Shown piece after piece: positions 1 to 13,167 of a DNA stretch of 64,000 nucleotides. The stretch comes from Candidatus Eiseniibacteriota bacterium. GTDB taxonomy: Bacteria; Eisenbacteria; RBG-16-71-46; DASYSL01. Numbering within the stretch: the stretch's first letter is position 1; each line of letters starts with the position of its first letter. The notes under the pieces were generated by a model. It did not search any database. It saw only the letters and a list, made by a program, of their open reading frames with translations, and was not told the origin of the DNA. The stretch lies in assembly GCA_031431875.1 (NCBI GenBank), contig JANPEF010000061.1, forward strand, positions 43,412-107,411. Reading direction: 5' to 3'. Position numbers and translations under genes: made by a program.

Positions 1-311
1 CGCGCGCCATGGGCGGCGCCTCCGAGGAGGGCCGGGAAGCGCAGTTCCAGTGGGCGATGCAGAACTACGATGCGATCATGAAGCGCGTGCCACCCATGTT
101 CGCAGTGTTCATGCCGTTCGTCGGATCCGGCTGTTCCGGCGACCGGCTCACGGCGACGCAGTCGTTCTTCGCCGATCCGGCGCACGCGCCTCCGGGCACC
201 GAGAAGGAACTGGCAAAGGTGACCGAAACGGTCGAGGACTGCATGAAGCTGCGGGCGCGCGAAGGTCCGCGCGTGCGCGAGTTCCTGCAGCGAGGTCCGG
301 TTGCGAACTAG
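1..311 (+). CDS. 3' end of a probable M1-family aminopeptidase (ERAP1-like C-terminal domain), truncated by window start
   Basis: Open frame from the window edge to TAG at 309-311. The helical sequence (QFQWAMQNYDAIMKR...GCS...QSFF...ETVEDCMKLR) resembles the C-terminus of bacterial aminopeptidase N. The catalytic region is not visible. Confidence 0.6.
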   Translation, partial: RAMGGASEEGREAQFQWAMQNYDAIMKRVPPMFAVFMPFVGSGCSGDRLTATQSFFADPAHAPPGTEKELAKVTETVEDCMKLRAREGPRVREFLQRGPVAN

Positions 312-1075
312 CGGTAGCCAGCCTTGATGCGGCCCCACGTCGCCGGAACGGCCGGCGTGGGTGTCTCGTAGGTGATGGTGAGCGCGGGGCGGAGTGTGGG
401 ATCCGTCGATTCGCGGGAGTCGAACTTCTTGACCGTCTGCGCTATCGCCTCGTTGCCGCGCAGCAGCCAGCCGTGGTTGCTCGCAGGCTCGTCGAGCCAC
501 GCCTGCACGTCGGCGACCAGCCCGGGATTCGACGTCCACACGTAGGTTCCCGTTGCGTCGACCGCCAGCGTCGCGCTCGCCGCCGCCGCGAAGTCGCCCC
601 CGGCCGCGGCCCAGAGGGATCCCGGGAAGAAGGTGTGCTTCCACGTTGCGTCGCCGGCCTGTGCCGGCGCGCCGCTGCCACCGGCGATCCCGGCGTCCGA
701 GGCGCCCTCACCCCAGGCGGCGCTCGCGCGGTGCAACCCAACGTTCGCGGCTCCGGCACTCGTCTGGCTCATGATCAACTCAAGATCGACCGACAGGATC
801 GTCGCGCCGTCGGGAATCGCCGCGGCCACGTTGAACCACAGCAACCCGCGGCGGATGCTGTTCGTGGCCTGGTTGTTGCGGCCGGCGAAAAAGCTGGTGC
901 CCGCGCCGTTGCTGAGGGATCCAGTAGCGCTCTCGTAGAGCGTATTGTCTTTCGCCGCGCCGATGACCAGCGTCGTGCCGGCCCGCGCACCCGGAGCGGG
1001 AACGAGCAGGGCGACGAGGACGGCGACCAGCCGGGCCGCGGATCGGCCGCCGCGATGGGCGTGGAACGGGTTCAC
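308..1075 (-). CDS. Secreted DNRLRE-domain protein with C-terminal TWGxxKxxYR motif (255 aa)
   Basis: GTG at 1075 preceded by GAGGAG. Signal peptide ends in ARA. DNTLYE...RRGLLWF...WGEG...ATW...VQAWLD...NHGWLL...FDSRE...RPALTITY is typical of DNRLRE domains. Ends PATWGRIKAGYR. Confidence 0.8.
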   Translation of the reverse strand: MNPFHAHRGGRSAARLVAVLVALLVPAPGARAGTTLVIGAAKDNTLYESATGSLSNGAGTSFFAGRNNQATNSIRRGLLWFNVAAAIPDGATILSVDLELIMSQTSAGAANVGLHRASAAWGEGASDAGIAGGSGAPAQAGDATWKHTFFPGSLWAAAGGDFAAAASATLAVDATGTYVWTSNPGLVADVQAWLDEPASNHGWLLRGNEAIAQTVKKFDSRESTDPTLRPALTITYETPTPAVPATWGRIKAGYR

Positions 1076-4386: not shown

Positions 4387-4402
4387 TGCAACCGCCATGC
4401 CA
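4387..4402 (-). promoter_or_regulatory. Putative sigma54 (-24/-12) promoter for the GAF-GGDEF gene
   Basis: Minus strand reads TGGCATGGCGGTTGCA (GG-N10-GC), 50 nt upstream of the ATG. Confidence 0.65.
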
Positions 4403-4538
4403 GCGAGGTCAGGTCGGGCACCGAACGCGCAGTGTGTTGTCCCGGTGTGCATTGCGCTTGTCGCTTGCGATGTCAGGTGAGCCTGGCGGCTTTGCCACCA
4501 GGACAGGTGGCGTCGATTTGGCCACCCGGGGTGGGCGA

Positions 4539-4567
4539 TTGACACCCGGTGCGGATGCTCCTATGCT
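4539..4567 (+). promoter_or_regulatory. Putative sigma70 promoter for the 4677 gene
   Basis: TTGACA-N17-TATGCT. Confidence 0.7.
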
Positions 4568-4676
4568 CCTTGGGCTCGCCGATTCGAGCCCCCCACGAGC
4601 ATCGTTCGCAGCACCGGGACTTCGGCCCGGTCCCCTGCCCCAGCCAGCAAACTCACGGTTCCGTGGAGGCAGTCCC

Positions 4677-5387
4677 ATGAAGCGCTTGTCATTCCTGTCC
4701 GCGTTTGCCCTCTTGGCCGCGCCCGCCCTTGCCTTCGCCGCTCCGAATGCCGGCACCTACCAGACCACCGACCTCGGCGGCCAGCTCCTCACCGGGCGCG
4801 CCTCGTCGCACCGGACGGGGATCAACTCCGGCCTGCCGCATGTCCTGCACTCGCAGTCGTGGAACGGCTCGACGCTCGGCACGCAGTGGGAGTTGCGCTG
4901 CGCGGTCGAGAACGCCGCGTTCGGCATCCAGGACAACCGCGTCAACGGCACCGGCACCATCGTCTACAGCTCGACCTACACCGGCGGCCAGTTCGAGCTG
5001 TACAACACCGGCGGCGCCTGGGGTGACGGCGTGGCCGCGCTCGGAACGACGAGCATCATCTCGACCGTGCAGTTCGTGAACATCAACAACGTCTCGACGC
5101 CGGTCGCGTCGGTCGTCAATGCCAACACCTCGGGTGACTTCGGCGGCGGCTGCGTCCTCACCTTCGCGATCGCGAATGGCGTCGGCGTGGGCGAGACGAC
5201 GAGCCTCGACGTTTCGATCCAGAAGCCGGCCGACTACCCGACGTTCCTCGCCGCCAACTGCGGCCTCGCCTTGCCCAACGAGCAGTTCGGCACGTGGGGC
5301 ACCATGATCACCGGGACGCTGCGCATCGATTGCTCGGTCGACGCAACGACTTCGACCTGGGGCGCGGTGAAGAACATCTATCGCTGA
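4677..5387 (+). CDS. Secreted beta-rich hypothetical protein with C-terminal TWGxxKxxYR motif (236 aa)
   Basis: ATG after GGAGG. Signal peptide MKRLSFLSAFALLAAPALAFA. Ends STWGAVKNIYR. Its TGA stop is partly supplied by the IS end. Confidence 0.85.
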   Translation: MKRLSFLSAFALLAAPALAFAAPNAGTYQTTDLGGQLLTGRASSHRTGINSGLPHVLHSQSWNGSTLGTQWELRCAVENAAFGIQDNRVNGTGTIVYSSTYTGGQFELYNTGGAWGDGVAALGTTSIISTVQFVNINNVSTPVASVVNANTSGDFGGGCVLTFAIANGVGVGETTSLDVSIQKPADYPTFLAANCGLALPNEQFGTWGTMITGTLRIDCSVDATTSTWGAVKNIYR

Positions 5388-5420
5388 TATGGCATGACCT
5401 CTTGTCAAGCTGGTCCACAC

Positions 5421-5454
5421 GCGACCACCGCTCCGGCGGTGGTCGCTGTGTTTT
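5421..5454 (+). terminator. Terminator-like hairpin inside the IS right end
   Basis: GCGACCACCGC-TCCG-GCGGTGGTCGC (11-bp stem) followed by TGTGTTTT on the plus strand. Confidence 0.6.
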
Positions 5455-5462
5455 GGGGAGAT

Positions 5463-5684
5463 GAGCTTCTGGAAGGACGGACGCGGAAGTCGCCGACGGC
5501 GTGTCACTCTGATATCCGCGGGTTGCCTCGAAGGATCGGGGCCGAGCCGCATGACCGTAGTTCGTCGGGAGGTACCGCAGTCTAGCATCGTGAGTCGGTG
5601 GCTCCGGTGAACCGGAGTCCCGTCGCGTAGCGATATCGCGGGTTATCTCACGCATCATCCCCTCGTCCGTCCATCCTGAAGCTC
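5463..5684 (-). ncRNA. Predicted IS110 bridge RNA / seekRNA
   Basis: Enclosed by a 19/21 inverted repeat (5463-5483 with 5664-5684). Two internal hairpins (5602-5617, 5525-5542) are each flanked by segments matching the target (TATCGCTA, GATGCTAG) or the donor junction (TACGGTCA, ATATCAGA). Exact RNA ends are unknown. Confidence 0.75.
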
Positions 5685-6804
5685 AGCCTTGGGCCTTCGC
5701 GGCTTCCGGCCGGGCCAGTGCGGCCCAGAGGAAGCCGGCGAGCTCGCGAGCAATCGCGATGACGATCTTGTTGCGGTGCTTGCCTCGAGCCTCCATCTGC
5801 CGGAATCGACGACAGAGCCGCTTCTGGGCCCGATCGGCCAGGGCAATCATGGCCGGCGGCTGGCCAAGCCGCCGGTTCGCCAGGTCCTTGCTGACCCGAG
5901 CCTTGTGGCGGTAGTTCCAGGAGCCTTCGATCAGAGTGCGGCGCACGTGCTGGTTGCCGGCGCGCGTGATCCCGCCGCGGCGATGATGATCTCCACTGCT
6001 GGCTTCCGAGGGCACGAGCCCGAGAAAGGCCATGAGCGAAGGAGCAGACGGAAACCTCCGAACGTCATGAAGCTCCGACAGCAAGATCATGGCGTTCACC
6101 GTGTCGATCCCGCGAAAGCAGCGGAGCCAACCGACTCGTTCGCGCCACGGCTCTCCCTGGGAGATCGCCAGGAGCTCGACATCGAGCGCGGAGCGCTGGG
6201 CCTCACGCTGCTCGACCGTGAGCAGGTAGTCCTCGAAGACGATCCGCTCGGAAGGGCGTTCGAACACCAGGCTCGTGAGCCAGGTCCGATGGGCCTGAGA
6301 CCACGAGTGTGCTTGCCCCGTGCCGAAGACCAGCCCGTGCCGCAACAGGAAGTGCGTGAGGCGGTGACGCGCCCGCGTGAGATCGACGCGCGCATCGTCG
6401 CGGCAGCGGCACAGATCCCGTACCGCCTCCTCGTCAACGCTCGGAGGATGGACTTCGGTCAGAAGCCCTGCGCGAAACAGCTCGGCCAGCTTGCGCGCAT
6501 CCCTGCGATCGGTCTTGATGCGATCGCCCGGCCGAAGCGGCGTCAGGGACGGCGCGATCACCGTGCACTCGCAGCCCTGAGCGATCAGATCACGCTGAAG
6601 CACGTAACCGCAGGGTCCTGCTTCGTAACAGCAACGAACCGGTCCCTGCGCCTGGGCCTTGATGCGCTGGACCAACTTGCGGACTTGGGCCGCCTGGTTC
6701 GCGATCTGCCCATTCCACGGCTCCCGATCCTGGGGCTTGAGTACGCAAAACGAGATCGTGTTGCGATGGACATCCAGACCGACGATGGTGCTAGGCTCTT
6801 GCAC
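5683..6804 (-). CDS. IS110 family transposase/recombinase (DEDD RuvC-like domain plus Tnp_20 domain), 373 aa
   Basis: GTG at 6804 after GGGAG. Motifs GLDVH, YEAG, KTDRRDA, GLVPSEASSG (catalytic Ser), GITRAGN, AIARELAGFLW. Confidence 0.95.
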   Translation of the reverse strand: MQEPSTIVGLDVHRNTISFCVLKPQDREPWNGQIANQAAQVRKLVQRIKAQAQGPVRCCYEAGPCGYVLQRDLIAQGCECTVIAPSLTPLRPGDRIKTDRRDARKLAELFRAGLLTEVHPPSVDEEAVRDLCRCRDDARVDLTRARHRLTHFLLRHGLVFGTGQAHSWSQAHRTWLTSLVFERPSERIVFEDYLLTVEQREAQRSALDVELLAISQGEPWRERVGWLRCFRGIDTVNAMILLSELHDVRRFPSAPSLMAFLGLVPSEASSGDHHRRGGITRAGNQHVRRTLIEGSWNYRHKARVSKDLANRRLGQPPAMIALADRAQKRLCRRFRQMEARGKHRNKIVIAIARELAGFLWAALARPEAAKAQG

Positions 6805-6952
6805 GGCCGGCTCCCTTCGTATGCGGCTCTGCTGCTTCAAGCAGCAAACCGCGTCAGAGTGGATCAAACCACCCGGTCGTTCCCGGGGTTCCTGGTTGGG
6901 AACGACGGTACGAACCGGGGGCCGGTCATGCCATAGGGTCTAGAGTCGGGGC

Positions 6953-7672
6953 CTAGTCCGGCAGCGTCGAGACCTTGAACGGCGTCGGCGGAGACGAGGT
7001 GACGACCTTGCCGCCTTCGTCCCGGGCGTCCACGCGGACGAGCAGCGCCTGTCCCGCAACCGGACGGAAGTCGAGTTCGGAGGCCGGCACGTCGAGCGCC
7101 GAGTCGCCGCGCACGCTCCGGTATGCCAGCTCTTCGAGGCGGTCCGAGTAGACGCGCACCTCGTAGGTGTCGGCGCCCGGAACCGCGTTCCACGAGACGT
7201 GCAATCCGTCGACATCGAGCCCGGCCGAGCGGACGCGCAGCATCGGCGCATTCGCATCGCTCGATCCGCCGCGCAGGACCTGCGATGGATCGTGCTCCGC
7301 ATGGCGCGGCCACAGAACGACCCCGCCCACCACGATTGCCGCCACCACGAGCCCCAGCGCGGGCCGCAGTGCCGGCGCGAACAGCGCGGCCCACCACGAG
7401 GTGCGCGGCGTCGCGCGTAACGGCGCGTGGGGTGCAGGGTCGGGTTCGGAAGGCGCGCCGATCGTCCGCGCCAGGAACGCCGACAGCCGGGCGTCCGCCG
7501 CCGCGACGTCCGGCAGCGCGGCGTCGGCGCCGGGATCCATGAACCGGGCGTAGGCATCGAGCAGCGCGCCGCAGCGCGGGCACTGCGCGACGTGGGCGCG
7601 GCGCGGATCCGTCGCCGGCAGCTCGGCGACCGTGGCCAGTTCCTCGACCGGCATGCAGGGCGTGACGGTCAC
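6953..7672 (-). CDS. Putative anti-sigma factor (HxxxCxxC zinc motif, one TM helix, extracytoplasmic beta domain)
   Basis: GTG overlaps the sigma-factor stop (GTGA). Contains HVAQCPRC and the TM segment LGLVVAAIVVGGVVLW. Confidence 0.8.
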   Translation of the reverse strand: MTVTPCMPVEELATVAELPATDPRRAHVAQCPRCGALLDAYARFMDPGADAALPDVAAADARLSAFLARTIGAPSEPDPAPHAPLRATPRTSWWAALFAPALRPALGLVVAAIVVGGVVLWPRHAEHDPSQVLRGGSSDANAPMLRVRSAGLDVDGLHVSWNAVPGADTYEVRVYSDRLEELAYRSVRGDSALDVPASELDFRPVAGQALLVRVDARDEGGKVVTSSPPTPFKVSTLPD

Positions 7673-8250
7673 GGCGTTCTCCCTGCGAGCGCGGTGCGGA
7701 GCTTGCGCCGGGCGCGCTGCAGGAGTGCGCGTGCCCCGGTCGCATTGTCGAGCCTCATCACGACCGTGATCTCCTCGACGGGCAGTCGCTCGAAGCAGCG
7801 CAGCCACAGCGCTTCCCGTTCCTCGGGATCGAGAGTGTCGGCAAGCAGCTGGCGCAACGCTATCTCATCCTGCAGCTCCCCCAGCATCCGTTCCGGGGTG
7901 CCGTCCGTCGCCGGCAGCGTCTCGAGCTCGACGTCGTCGTCGCGCAGCAGGCCCGGCGCCGCGAGTTCGTTCAGGCAACGATTGCGCGCGATCGCGAAAA
8001 GCCACGAGCCGAAGAGCGCCCGGCCCTGGAACGAGCCCAGGGCGCGCCACGCCCGCAGCAGCACCTCCTGCGCCAGTTCGAGCGCTCGTTCCGGATCCCG
8101 CACGTAGCGGTGACACCACACGTACACCCGACGCTGGTAGCGCCCGAGCAACGCCGAAGCCGCGGCCCGCCCGCCCGCCCCGTCGGGATCGGCGGCGTGG
8201 CGGGCGAGGAACTCGTCGTCGGTCGGCTCGGGGCGCGGGGCCTCGCTCAT
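7669..8250 (-). CDS. ECF sigma-70 family RNA polymerase sigma factor
   Basis: Region 2 (ELAQEVLLRAW...FGSWLFAIARNRC) and region 4 (LDPEEREAL...EEI...LQRARRKLR). Translationally coupled to a ZAS-type gene. Confidence 0.9.
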   Translation of the reverse strand: MSEAPRPEPTDDEFLARHAADPDGAGGRAAASALLGRYQRRVYVWCHRYVRDPERALELAQEVLLRAWRALGSFQGRALFGSWLFAIARNRCLNELAAPGLLRDDDVELETLPATDGTPERMLGELQDEIALRQLLADTLDPEEREALWLRCFERLPVEEITVVMRLDNATGARALLQRARRKLRTALAGRTP

Positions 8251-10263: not shown

Positions 10264-11658
10264 CTACGGCCCGAGGCCTTCGGGAATCGCCGCCCCGGGA
10301 GCCGTCGCGGCGAATACATCCTGCGATTCCGTCGCCACGGCCGTACCCGGCTTCGGCTTCATGAACGGCAGCAGGACCAGCGGCAACAGCCCCACGACGC
10401 AGTCGATCACGAGCGTCTTCGGGTAGCCGAAGCGCACGATCGAGAAGCCCTGCCACGTCGAGGTGTACGAGATGGCGAAGTTCTGCATCGCCATGTACGC
10501 CGTGAACTGCGTCGCCGCCACCGCCGGCGTCGTGATGTCCATGAACAGCGCGCTGCGGATCCCGTAGTACAACCCCTGGAACACGTTGTAGGAGATGCAG
10601 GCAATCCAGAACGCCTGGACGAGCCCGGCCGGCACCGCGGGGCGGTCCGGGGCGTTCGCCGCGATCGAGTGGATCCAGCCGTACTGTTGCATCTGCCAGG
10701 CGAGGTACAGCGTCGGCACCGCGGTCATCGCGATGAAGACGGCCAGCGTGCGCCGCCGGCCGAAACGGTCGGAGACCCACCCGCCGGTGATGCAGGTCAC
10801 GGCGAAGATGACCGTCGACCAGAGATTGAGCGTGGCCACCTGGTTGTCGGTGAAGCCCAGCTCGACGGCCAGAGTCGACTGCAGCGCGAGCGCCAGGGCG
10901 TAGGCGCCCAGCGGCAACAGCGCCGAGAACACGCCGACGAGCGCGGCTTGCGACCCGATGAACGCCCTATACGCCTGGACGACGAAGGTCTTGAGCTCGA
11001 GGCCGACGGCCGCGACCTTCGAGCCGACGACCGGCGCAGCGAGCGGACGCGCGACCTCGCGCAGCGGCAACACGACGAAGACGGTGACCAGCAGGATCAC
11101 ACCGATGACGAAGAAGTACGTCGACTGGAACGGCATGACGCCGGCGAGGAACAGCACCATCGATCCGCCGATCGTCTGTCCCACCGACGCGCCGCCGAAC
11201 ATGAAGCCGTTGGCCACGCCACGCTCCGACTCGGGGAGCACGTTGCAGGCGAGCGCGTCGATGGCCACGTCCATGATCGCCGCGAACGAGTTGTGGACGG
11301 CGATGATGATGGTGAAGAGGGCGAGGTTCTTCACGTAGTCGATCGGCCAGGCGAGGAGCAGCGTGGCGGCCATGCCCAGCTGCATGAGGAAGATCCACAG
11401 CCGGCGGCGGCCGAAGCGGTCGCTCGAGAACGTGTCGACGAACGGCCCGGCGATCCACTTGAACGCCCACGGCAGGTAGAGCGAGCCGACGAACGCGCCG
11501 ATCAGCTCCGGCGACAGGCCCTGGCGGCGCATCTGCGTGCCGATGGCGGTGGCGGTGAAGCCGAGCGGGATGCCCTCGGTCATGTAGAGCAGGAAGAACG
11601 CGGTGAGGCGACCGTTCTTGGTCGCCAGCAGGTCGGGGAGCGGCAGGCGGAAGCTCAT
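10264..11658 (-). CDS. MFS transporter, AmpG/RhtX/FptX-like
   Basis: LLYMTEGIPLGF, LPWAFKW, GRRRLWI, DVAIDALA, ATQFTAYMA and about 12 hydrophobic segments. Confidence 0.88.
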   Translation of the reverse strand: MSFRLPLPDLLATKNGRLTAFFLLYMTEGIPLGFTATAIGTQMRRQGLSPELIGAFVGSLYLPWAFKWIAGPFVDTFSSDRFGRRRLWIFLMQLGMAATLLLAWPIDYVKNLALFTIIIAVHNSFAAIMDVAIDALACNVLPESERGVANGFMFGGASVGQTIGGSMVLFLAGVMPFQSTYFFVIGVILLVTVFVVLPLREVARPLAAPVVGSKVAAVGLELKTFVVQAYRAFIGSQAALVGVFSALLPLGAYALALALQSTLAVELGFTDNQVATLNLWSTVIFAVTCITGGWVSDRFGRRRTLAVFIAMTAVPTLYLAWQMQQYGWIHSIAANAPDRPAVPAGLVQAFWIACISYNVFQGLYYGIRSALFMDITTPAVAATQFTAYMAMQNFAISYTSTWQGFSIVRFGYPKTLVIDCVVGLLPLVLLPFMKPKPGTAVATESQDVFAATAPGAAIPEGLGP

Positions 11659-13019
11659 CAGTGAACGACTCCTTCCGGAATGGCCGCGCCGGGACCGGGG
11701 CCCGACGGCGGAGCGAACCCCGCGGCCGCATGTCTGGCGGACAGCGGAGTGACGAACGGCAGGATGAGCAGGCACACCAGGCCGAAGGCCGCGTCGAACC
11801 CGAGGGTGAGAGGATACCCGAATCGCTCGATCGAGTGGCCCTGCCACCACGCGGCCATCGAGGAGGCCAGGTTGCACAGGGCCATGTACGCGGTGAACTG
11901 GGTGGCGGCCACGCGCGGCGTCGTGATGTCCATGTAGAGCGCGGTGCCCGCGCCGTACATGAGGCCCTGCGCGATGTAGTACGAGAGGCAGGCGGTCCAG
12001 AACGCGCTGATCGCCGCCGCCCCGATCGCCCCGCCGGCGAGCAAGAGTGCGAGGCAGACGCCGGGCACGGACATCAGGGCGACGAAGAGCGCGATCGTGC
12101 GGCGGCGGCCCAGGCGATCCGACAGCCAGCCGCCGACCACGCAGCCCAGCGCCCCGCAGAACGACGAAGCCATCGCCAGCGCGCCGATGGCGCCGTCGTC
12201 CATGCCCAGCTCGACCGCGAGGTTCGATTGCAGCGCCAGGCCGAGGCCCATGGCGCCCATCGGCAGGAGCGCCAGCAGCACGCCGAACAGGGCGCCGCGC
12301 GAGCCGGTGAAGGCGTGCCACGACGCGACGAGGAACTCGCGCATGCGCGCGCCCGCCGCCGCCAGCGCCGCCGCAGGGCCGGCGCCGGGGCCGCCCGCGT
12401 GCGCCGCCGCCACCGCAGCCGTCTCGCGCAGGCGCAGCGAGACCACGATCCCGATCAGCGCGACCGCTCCGGCAACGACGAGGAACGTGGCGCGGAACGG
12501 CATGGCCGCGGTCAGCATGAGCACGCCGCCGCCGCCCAGTGCGGTGCCCACCGCTTGTCCCGCGAACATGACGCCGTTCGCCGTCCCACGTTCCTCGACG
12601 GGCAGCACGTTGCAGGCGAGCGCGTCGATCGCGACGTCCTGCGTCGCGGCGAAGGCGTTGTGCAGGATCAGGAGCCCGGTGAAGAGTGCGAGCTGCTGCG
12701 CGGGATCGACGGTCATGGCCACCAGCAGCGTGACGACCATGAGGCCCTGCGCCAGCACGACCCAGAATCGCCGCGGTCCCCAGCGCGCCACGGTCAGCGA
12801 GTCGACGATCGGCCCCACCGCCCACTTGAACGCCCACGGCAGGTAGAGCGCAGCGACGTAGGTCCCGATCTCCGCGGGACCCAGGCCCAGTCGGCGCATC
12901 TGTGTGGCCACGGCGACCACCGCGAAGCCCGAGGGCAGGCCCTCACTGACATAGAGGAGGAAGAACGAGACGAGGCGGGCGCGACGCGTGCCGAGAGGGT
13001 CGGACGGAAGGAGGCGCAT
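11658..13019 (-). CDS. MFS transporter, AmpG/RhtX/FptX-like (tandem paralogue)
   Basis: LLYVSEGLPSGF, LPWAFKW, ATQDVAIDALA, ATQFTAYMA. Stop overlaps the next start (TGATG). Confidence 0.88.
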   Translation of the reverse strand: MRLLPSDPLGTRRARLVSFFLLYVSEGLPSGFAVVAVATQMRRLGLGPAEIGTYVAALYLPWAFKWAVGPIVDSLTVARWGPRRFWVVLAQGLMVVTLLVAMTVDPAQQLALFTGLLILHNAFAATQDVAIDALACNVLPVEERGTANGVMFAGQAVGTALGGGGVLMLTAAMPFRATFLVVAGAVALIGIVVSLRLRETAAVAAAHAGGPGAGPAAALAAAGARMREFLVASWHAFTGSRGALFGVLLALLPMGAMGLGLALQSNLAVELGMDDGAIGALAMASSFCGALGCVVGGWLSDRLGRRRTIALFVALMSVPGVCLALLLAGGAIGAAAISAFWTACLSYYIAQGLMYGAGTALYMDITTPRVAATQFTAYMALCNLASSMAAWWQGHSIERFGYPLTLGFDAAFGLVCLLILPFVTPLSARHAAAGFAPPSGPGPGAAIPEGVVH

Positions 13020-13167
13020 GGGCGCGCACCTTAGCACAGCCGGCGTCCGATTCTCCCGACGAGCGTCCGGCACTCCCGACAGGGCGGCGGGCACCGCGTG
13101 CAGCGCCTCGATCCGGGACTTCCCGCGAACCCACGCGAATTCGCGGGCTGGAGGGACCGCGACGCGC

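Follow-up and report, generated by a model that had tools for sequence, protein, structure and literature searches.

The 64,000-nucleotide stretch of Candidatus Eiseniibacteriota DNA analysed here (contig JANPEF010000061.1; hereafter the window) carries an insertion sequence placed exactly on the end of a gene whose product closes with a tail that we name WG after its Trp-Gly pair, and half of that gene's TGA stop codon is contributed by the element (Table 1). A CT core at 5384-5385 is repeated at 6940-6941, where AG follows, and the empty alleles described below hold a single CT, i.e. insertion is conservative and leaves a short core at both ends, as in the IS110 family. The recombinase matches PF01548 (the N-terminal DEDD domain) and PF02371 (the C-terminal domain), scores 236 bits against NF033542 (cut-off 140) and retains the D-V-H, E-A-G, D-R-R-D and S-S-G motifs. 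Its sub-terminal inverted repeats, at 11 bp, fall within the 7-17 bp range given for IS1111 elements (PMC11208160), and the end downstream of the recombinase gene tnp is long, non-coding and RNA-bearing (~300 bases, vs ~135 upstream), the layout of repeats and long non-coding end being that described for IS1111 in PMC11208160 and PMC11187229 (these and other papers are cited from the available portions of their text). Judged by its anatomy, 5384-6941 is thus an IS110 member of the IS1111 group. We propose, with a probability of roughly 0.85, that this bridge-recombinase element is guided to the Tyr-Arg-TAG end of the WG tail and rebuilds the stop codon as it inserts.

Table 1. Features of the element and its surroundings, in window coordinates
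Feature	Position	Strand	Remarks
Guide-compatible empty site TAC CGC TAG	308-316	-	ends a DNRLRE-domain gene with WG tail WGRIKAGYR
Host gene	4677-5387	+	236 amino acids; signal-peptide-like start; C-terminal WG tail TWGAVKNIYR, then TGA (5385-5387)
Left target half with CT core, TATCG-CT	5379-5385	+	
IS110-family element, IS1111 type by anatomy	5384-6941	-	1558 bp, both CT cores included
Terminal GA of the element	5386-5387	+	completes TGA
Sub-terminal inverted repeat, right end	5389-5399	.	3 bases inside core; pairs with 6924-6934
TTGACA, candidate -35 box of a putative circle-junction promoter	5403-5408	-	
Terminator-like hairpin with T-rich tail	5421-5446	+	on the host gene's strand
Predicted bridge (seek) RNA	5470-5680	-	approximate limits; fold z -1.9; alignments
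Right donor guide ATATCAG	5509-5517 (ATATCAG at about 5514-5508)	-	complementary to the element's own end
Probable left donor guide	5551-5560	-	6/7 bases match the left end
Right target guide CTAG	5582-5585	-	specifies CT-AG
Left target guide ATATCGCTA	5628-5636	-	specifies TATCG-CT; unpaired loop in predicted fold; covariation
IS110 recombinase	5683-6804	-	~373 amino acids from GTG at 6804; open frame extends to 6867
Sub-terminal inverted repeat, left end	6924-6934	.	5 bases inside core
Second core and displaced AG (CT-AG)	6940-6943	+	in congeners the flank goes with a different WG-tail gene (contig C60)

What directs the element to this site? A first-pass annotation, made from the letters alone, had taken the Tyr-Arg-stop end of the TWGAVKNIYR gene for its target, and the predicted RNA bears this out, with ATATCGCTA at 5636-5628 on the minus strand facing the left target half and the CT at 5384-5385. 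Along the element strand the guides follow one another as ATATCGCTA, CTAG, the probable left donor guide and ATATCAG, so arranged that the bridge RNA, as far as its sequence tells, reads TA(T/C)CG-CT-AG; the region has no match in Rfam. Apart from the probable left donor guide, these assignments draw on covariation with target and donor among relatives, for which element ends were called at 133 of 190 loci, a fixed scaffold served to parse the guides of 113, and 96 distinct rows had both flanks. In this set the left guide agrees with 3.75 of 5 target bases, compared with 1.42 over 10,000 permutations (maximum 1.82), and the right guide fits in 86 of 96 rows, compared with 28; because the rows are related by kinship, the permutation figures are not probabilities. 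The right target guide is CTAG when the site continues with AG and TCAG when it continues with GA in all 15 aligned relatives, in which the donor guide varies along with the element end; among parsed relatives the right donor guide agrees with its own end in 64 of 66, the two misses being mis-parsed rows that match in the alignment. Within the clade of WG-guided elements four left guides specify TATCG; a single one has TACCG and another TTCCG, each of these two fitting its own site. Pairing of a guide U with G (an rU:dG wobble) would let both Tyr codons be read; a tolerated non-canonical pair, rG:dT, is reported for IS621 (PMC11208160). Elsewhere in the family, the guides of L041, L046, L056, L065, L068, L072, L077, L121 and L186 are for CTAG-CTAG-like tandem sites outside called gene ends, and those of L092, L097-L100 and L107 for sites of the form ...G-CTC-TAG (Leu-stop).

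The state of the site before insertion can be read from congeners. The orthologue of the window gene in G070 is empty and ends TAC CGC TAG; in G067 the gene from C59 ends in the same way and runs on into C104, and so does the gene from C60, which runs on into the right flank of the window. With TAG as the stop in all three empty alleles found, the change from TAG to TGA at the CT core, which the first-pass annotation had suggested to leave the protein unchanged, is established. In G067 the orthologue of the window gene itself bears on its stop a 37-base two-ended remnant with both inverted repeats (L296:2222-2260), left by an element of this type, and G070 has the identical gene order at the C60 gene, there ending CGG TAA. 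Orthologues of the C18 and C67 genes were not found in five congeners with the queries used. The empty allele that had been predicted by joining the two flanks of the window proved wrong, since the right flank (6942 onwards; L292, L293) lies, in two congeners, on the downstream side of another gene with a WG tail. The two flanks in the window thus stem from different insertions, brought together through either mis-assembly across the repeat or rearrangement between copies. Among contigs of four public runs aligned over 4400-7800, none linked the flanks across the element and none spanned it; one of the runs had a summed depth of ~74 inside the element and ~11 outside, figures that are not a copy number. 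At L289:1-142 (C104) there is a left end only 90% identical to that of the window, whereas its partner right end, on C59, is identical; the element is either another variant or a hybrid.

All four right ends of full identity in the same genome (C61, C18, C60 and C59) follow an in-frame Tyr-Arg at the end of an open reading frame (ORF), the Tyr codon being TAT at one site and TAC at three; three of the hosts bear WG tails and one (C59) is an outer-membrane beta-barrel gene. C67 adds a fifth end, reduced to a remnant of 15 bases and likewise on a WG tail. A self-trained gene caller gave 3037 gene ends; it learned from this genome and is likely to overlook genes that are short or foreign. Judged by these ends, CTAG occurs at 1695 sites, of which 408 coincide with called stops and 12 with WG tails, so that four of four on Tyr-Arg-stop is more than chance would give. 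CTAG as such is depleted 3.5-fold in the whole genome (1698 seen vs 5909 expected). Empty TAYCGCTAG sites, the one in the window (316-308, minus strand), correctly spotted at the outset, among them, all end a Tyr-Arg ORF (6/6, against 0.9 expected from a Markov model), and five are WG tails. The site on C2 (TAT CGC TGA, then six end-like bases) was left out of the scar count.

The WG tail itself, ~17 residues long, occurs on 62 ORFs of at least 150 residues. A crude test for signal peptides is passed by 41 of these and by 502 of the 2561 remaining ORFs; judged from sequence, the tail appears to be common to dozens of exported proteins. It matches no NCBIfam model, and the window's host gene matches nothing in Pfam or NCBIfam. 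The T9SS (type IX secretion system) sorting domain of type A (TIGR04183/PF18962) matched none of six WG tails at E up to 10, domain searches of WG proteins returned no T9SS-tail matches, and a literature search for the tail found nothing. By a crude pattern, a T9SS-like end is present on 92 further ORFs of this genome. Tyr-Arg-stop closes 37 WG tails, and the guide fits solely those with CGC and the right stop; only a minority of the tail family is therefore open to the element.

A 15-base end pattern extends this picture to relatives: it has 32 matches, spread over 23 of 206 genomes from the phylum (G072, which is unpublished, counts solely within genome denominators), and its reversed control has none. 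In the host's order, 23 of 26 ends (17 of 102 genomes) lie on W-G/S-x-x-K-x-x-Y/F-R-stop, the other three being the C59 gene and two unrelated sites; outside the order, four of six ends follow T9SS-like tails. The idea of a multi-copy motif used as a family of harmless landing sites accordingly stands as regards the motif and, as regards harmlessness, for the protein sequence, while neutrality for the cell would go a step further. Twelve WG sites are one-ended scars, in which the 1.5 kb behind holds no recombinase, left end or donor guide. The left-end pattern, whose tolerance is not exactly matched to that of the right-end pattern, has five matches in the order outside the own genome, three of them real, vs 21 right ends. 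Behind a WG-tail gene of G071 (L301, ~1545-1620) lies a one-ended remnant with stop, inverted repeat, hairpin and T run, which is outside the reach of the strict end pattern. Are WG tails then preferred beyond what base-pairing dictates? WG tails already make up most of the empty TAYCGCTAG sites (16 of 27 strictly, 19 with variants, in five of the order's genomes; 21-24 of 33 in the comparison with occupied sites), so base-pairing suffices for the preference, and the specialisation lies in the choice of guide.

The strategy is wider than WG tails. In a FastTree tree of 128 recombinases, from which L024 (broken frame) and the ISfinder references were left out, the WG-guided elements, seven rows in all, group together as a clade (support 99; 59-91% identity to the window recombinase), separate from two T9SS-tail clades and one largely acidobacterial clade, and these sisters are directed at protein tails of other kinds. 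The matches listed for them (150 of 288 from a loose pattern with many chance matches) include at least 27 strict ends; of the 27 analysed, 21 follow a TIGR04183, FlgD or PorU-like tail (E up to 0.01), 11 lie above the TIGR04183 cut-off, and one (L261 in G032) sits on the stop of trpS, a tryptophan-tRNA ligase gene that is presumably essential, as fits a protein-neutral insertion. In five acidobacterial genomes, nine of 11 ends follow Phe and seven close a long ORF, including three PF25183 beta-barrels; one other element closes a TIGR03435 gene. Terminal Phe is a signal of beta-barrel proteins. An end that spells a stop is found in 95 of the 128 relatives; it is family-wide, not special to the window element, and probably a pre-adaptation. 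Elements with such an end lie on called stops in 26 of 80 scored cases, vs none of 27 without it.

Further inside the same end, the hairpin probably terminates the host transcript, to judge from its sequence. It is kept in all seven WG-clade elements, lies on the host strand in 25 of 128 relatives and on the element strand in one, and is present in 12 of 26 stop-sited elements vs 11 of 81 others; by blocking antisense read-in, it may benefit the element as much as the host. The TTGAC of the candidate -35 box stands 22-26 bases from the end in all 128 relatives, the -10 box at the circle junction would be weak, and no full promoter was found in the inserted state of the element. Beyond the second core, the minus strand holds a convergent pair resembling, by eye, an extracytoplasmic function (ECF) sigma factor and an anti-sigma factor (6953-7980) and, likewise judged by eye, two similar tandem AmpG-like transporter genes (10967-13034).

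How might these parts work together? The RNA would pair with TA(T/C)CG-CT-AG and with the element's own circle junction, and the recombinase, by analogy with IS621 and ISEc11, would exchange strands at the CT core, with the element held to a single orientation, antisense to the host gene. CTAG is rare in these GC-rich genomes, and the 9-mer is found chiefly where a multi-copy WG tail closes with Tyr-Arg-TAG. Upon insertion T|AG is split and the element end supplies GA, hence TGA, with the hairpin ~35 bases further in probably ending the host transcript. The protein being unchanged, one guide would open a whole family of near-neutral sites. The stop-making end is probably older than the guide, and in lineages that possess it the guides have probably switched, on several occasions, to conserved protein tails.

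It is conceivable, and in our estimate about evenly balanced, that a subfamily lives on the stop codons of protein-sorting tails, with stop and terminator combined in one end, at least three reprogrammings onto the host's most repeated C-terminal signal (WG, T9SS, beta-barrel Phe), wobble over synonymous codons, and an end left behind as a permanent stop and terminator after decay. Several observations weigh against the main proposal, that of an element guided to the Tyr-Arg-TAG end of WG tails. The ends L203 and L220 are one insertion common to two congeners; the WG-clade copies L004 and L112 and the remnant L215 are off target; 54 of the 80 stop-ended elements lie off called stops; on the tree the link between end and target is not significant, with only three independent pairs; and T-to-C mismatches, nine cases in all, are not dominant across the family. 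The enrichment over all TAYCGCTAG sites that the first-pass annotation had asked for came out in part: 23 of 26 occupied sites are WG ends, a weak excess over the empty ones (Fisher p 0.04-0.20), the sites not being independent and the test having little power because the empty sites are mostly WG tails already.

Might the elements simply have drifted into a rich niche, random guide mutation meeting a tail with many sites while stop restoration, incidental to an ancestral end, was never selected? This account, which overlaps the main proposal and differs from it on selection alone, gains from the prevalence of the stop-making end among relatives, most of them off stops, and from the non-significant test on independent pairs. 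We nevertheless consider it rather unlikely: tail-targeting clades switch their end only between TGA and TAG, the donor guide changing to match, none of the 27 ends that spell no stop lies on one, and the stop-bearing end outlasts the other, with 21 right vs three true left ends. Considerably less probable is survivor bias, in which an unspecialised guide inserts loosely at CT-AG and the host purges harmful copies. Only fixed insertions are visible, 24% of CTAG sites are already stops and the three off-target copies named above exist, which speaks in its favour; however, survivors would spread over all gene ends, where stops outnumber WG tails by 408 to 12 among CTAG sites, and the clade's guides spell out TATCG, TACCG or TTCCG. 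That the element recognises a DNA or RNA structure at gene ends rather than a coding motif, as the REP (repetitive extragenic palindromic) and attC targets of known IS1111 members (PMC11187229) might suggest, is hardly credible, given guides that account for the site, post-stop sequences unrelated (by eye) among 68 tail ORFs, and a non-WG gene hit at the identical 9-mer (C59).

No description of stop-codon targeting by IS110 or IS1111 elements turned up in the literature searched, which did not extend to subscription journals, notes in ISfinder or supplementary tables of targets. The term 'stop codon' does not occur in the available text of PMC11208160, PMC11187229, 10.1101/2025.05.14.653916 or 10.64898/2026.10.21.760802, and in 10.1101/2024.04.26.591405 it is used for tnp alone.

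If the proposal of an element guided to the Tyr-Arg-TAG end holds, it indicates the property for which selection favours natural bridge-RNA guides, namely that a protein motif becomes dozens of protein-neutral landing sites in genomes that offer few repeats. The family would provide a natural series of guide-target pairs from which mismatch rules can be drawn, as well as a design for inserting cargo directly after a gene with its protein unchanged. Reading the guides of insertion sequences would, moreover, be a route to unknown sorting signals, and some gene terminators are suggested to be old element ends.

Integrases and Tn7 likewise use the 3' ends of genes (tRNA, tmRNA, glmS) and leave the gene intact, and they resemble the present family in inserting at or beside a conserved gene end; they are, by contrast, protein-guided and mostly single-site, whereas this family would be RNA-guided, multi-site and reprogrammed between tails. 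IS900 inserts between the ribosome-binding site and the start codon. The IS900 group of IS110 is alike in an anatomy tied to host translation (the hed ORF; PMC8141618), and differs in using the start of a gene rather than its stop and in lacking a protein-motif family; the available text of PMC4607514 yielded nothing on IS900 targeting. The T9SS type A C-terminal domain (TIGR04183, PF18962, PF13860) is the tail at which two sister clades aim; the WG tail differs in its ~17 residues and its lack of an NCBIfam match. IS621 shares the CT core and the loop order of left target, right target, left donor and right donor; unlike the window element, it carries its RNA in the left end, is without long sub-terminal repeats and targets REP sequences (PMC11208160). 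A further close likeness is to the IS1111 seekRNA elements ISEc11, ISPa11 and ISKpn4, which have the DEDD recombinase, the sub-terminal inverted repeats, a long non-coding region downstream of tnp that matches both target strands, and a single orientation with a target of their own for each element (PMC11187229). Their reported targets are REP and attC sites, transposon ends and short linear sites, whereas the element in the window sits on a coding tail and its stop codon, and the stop is rebuilt.
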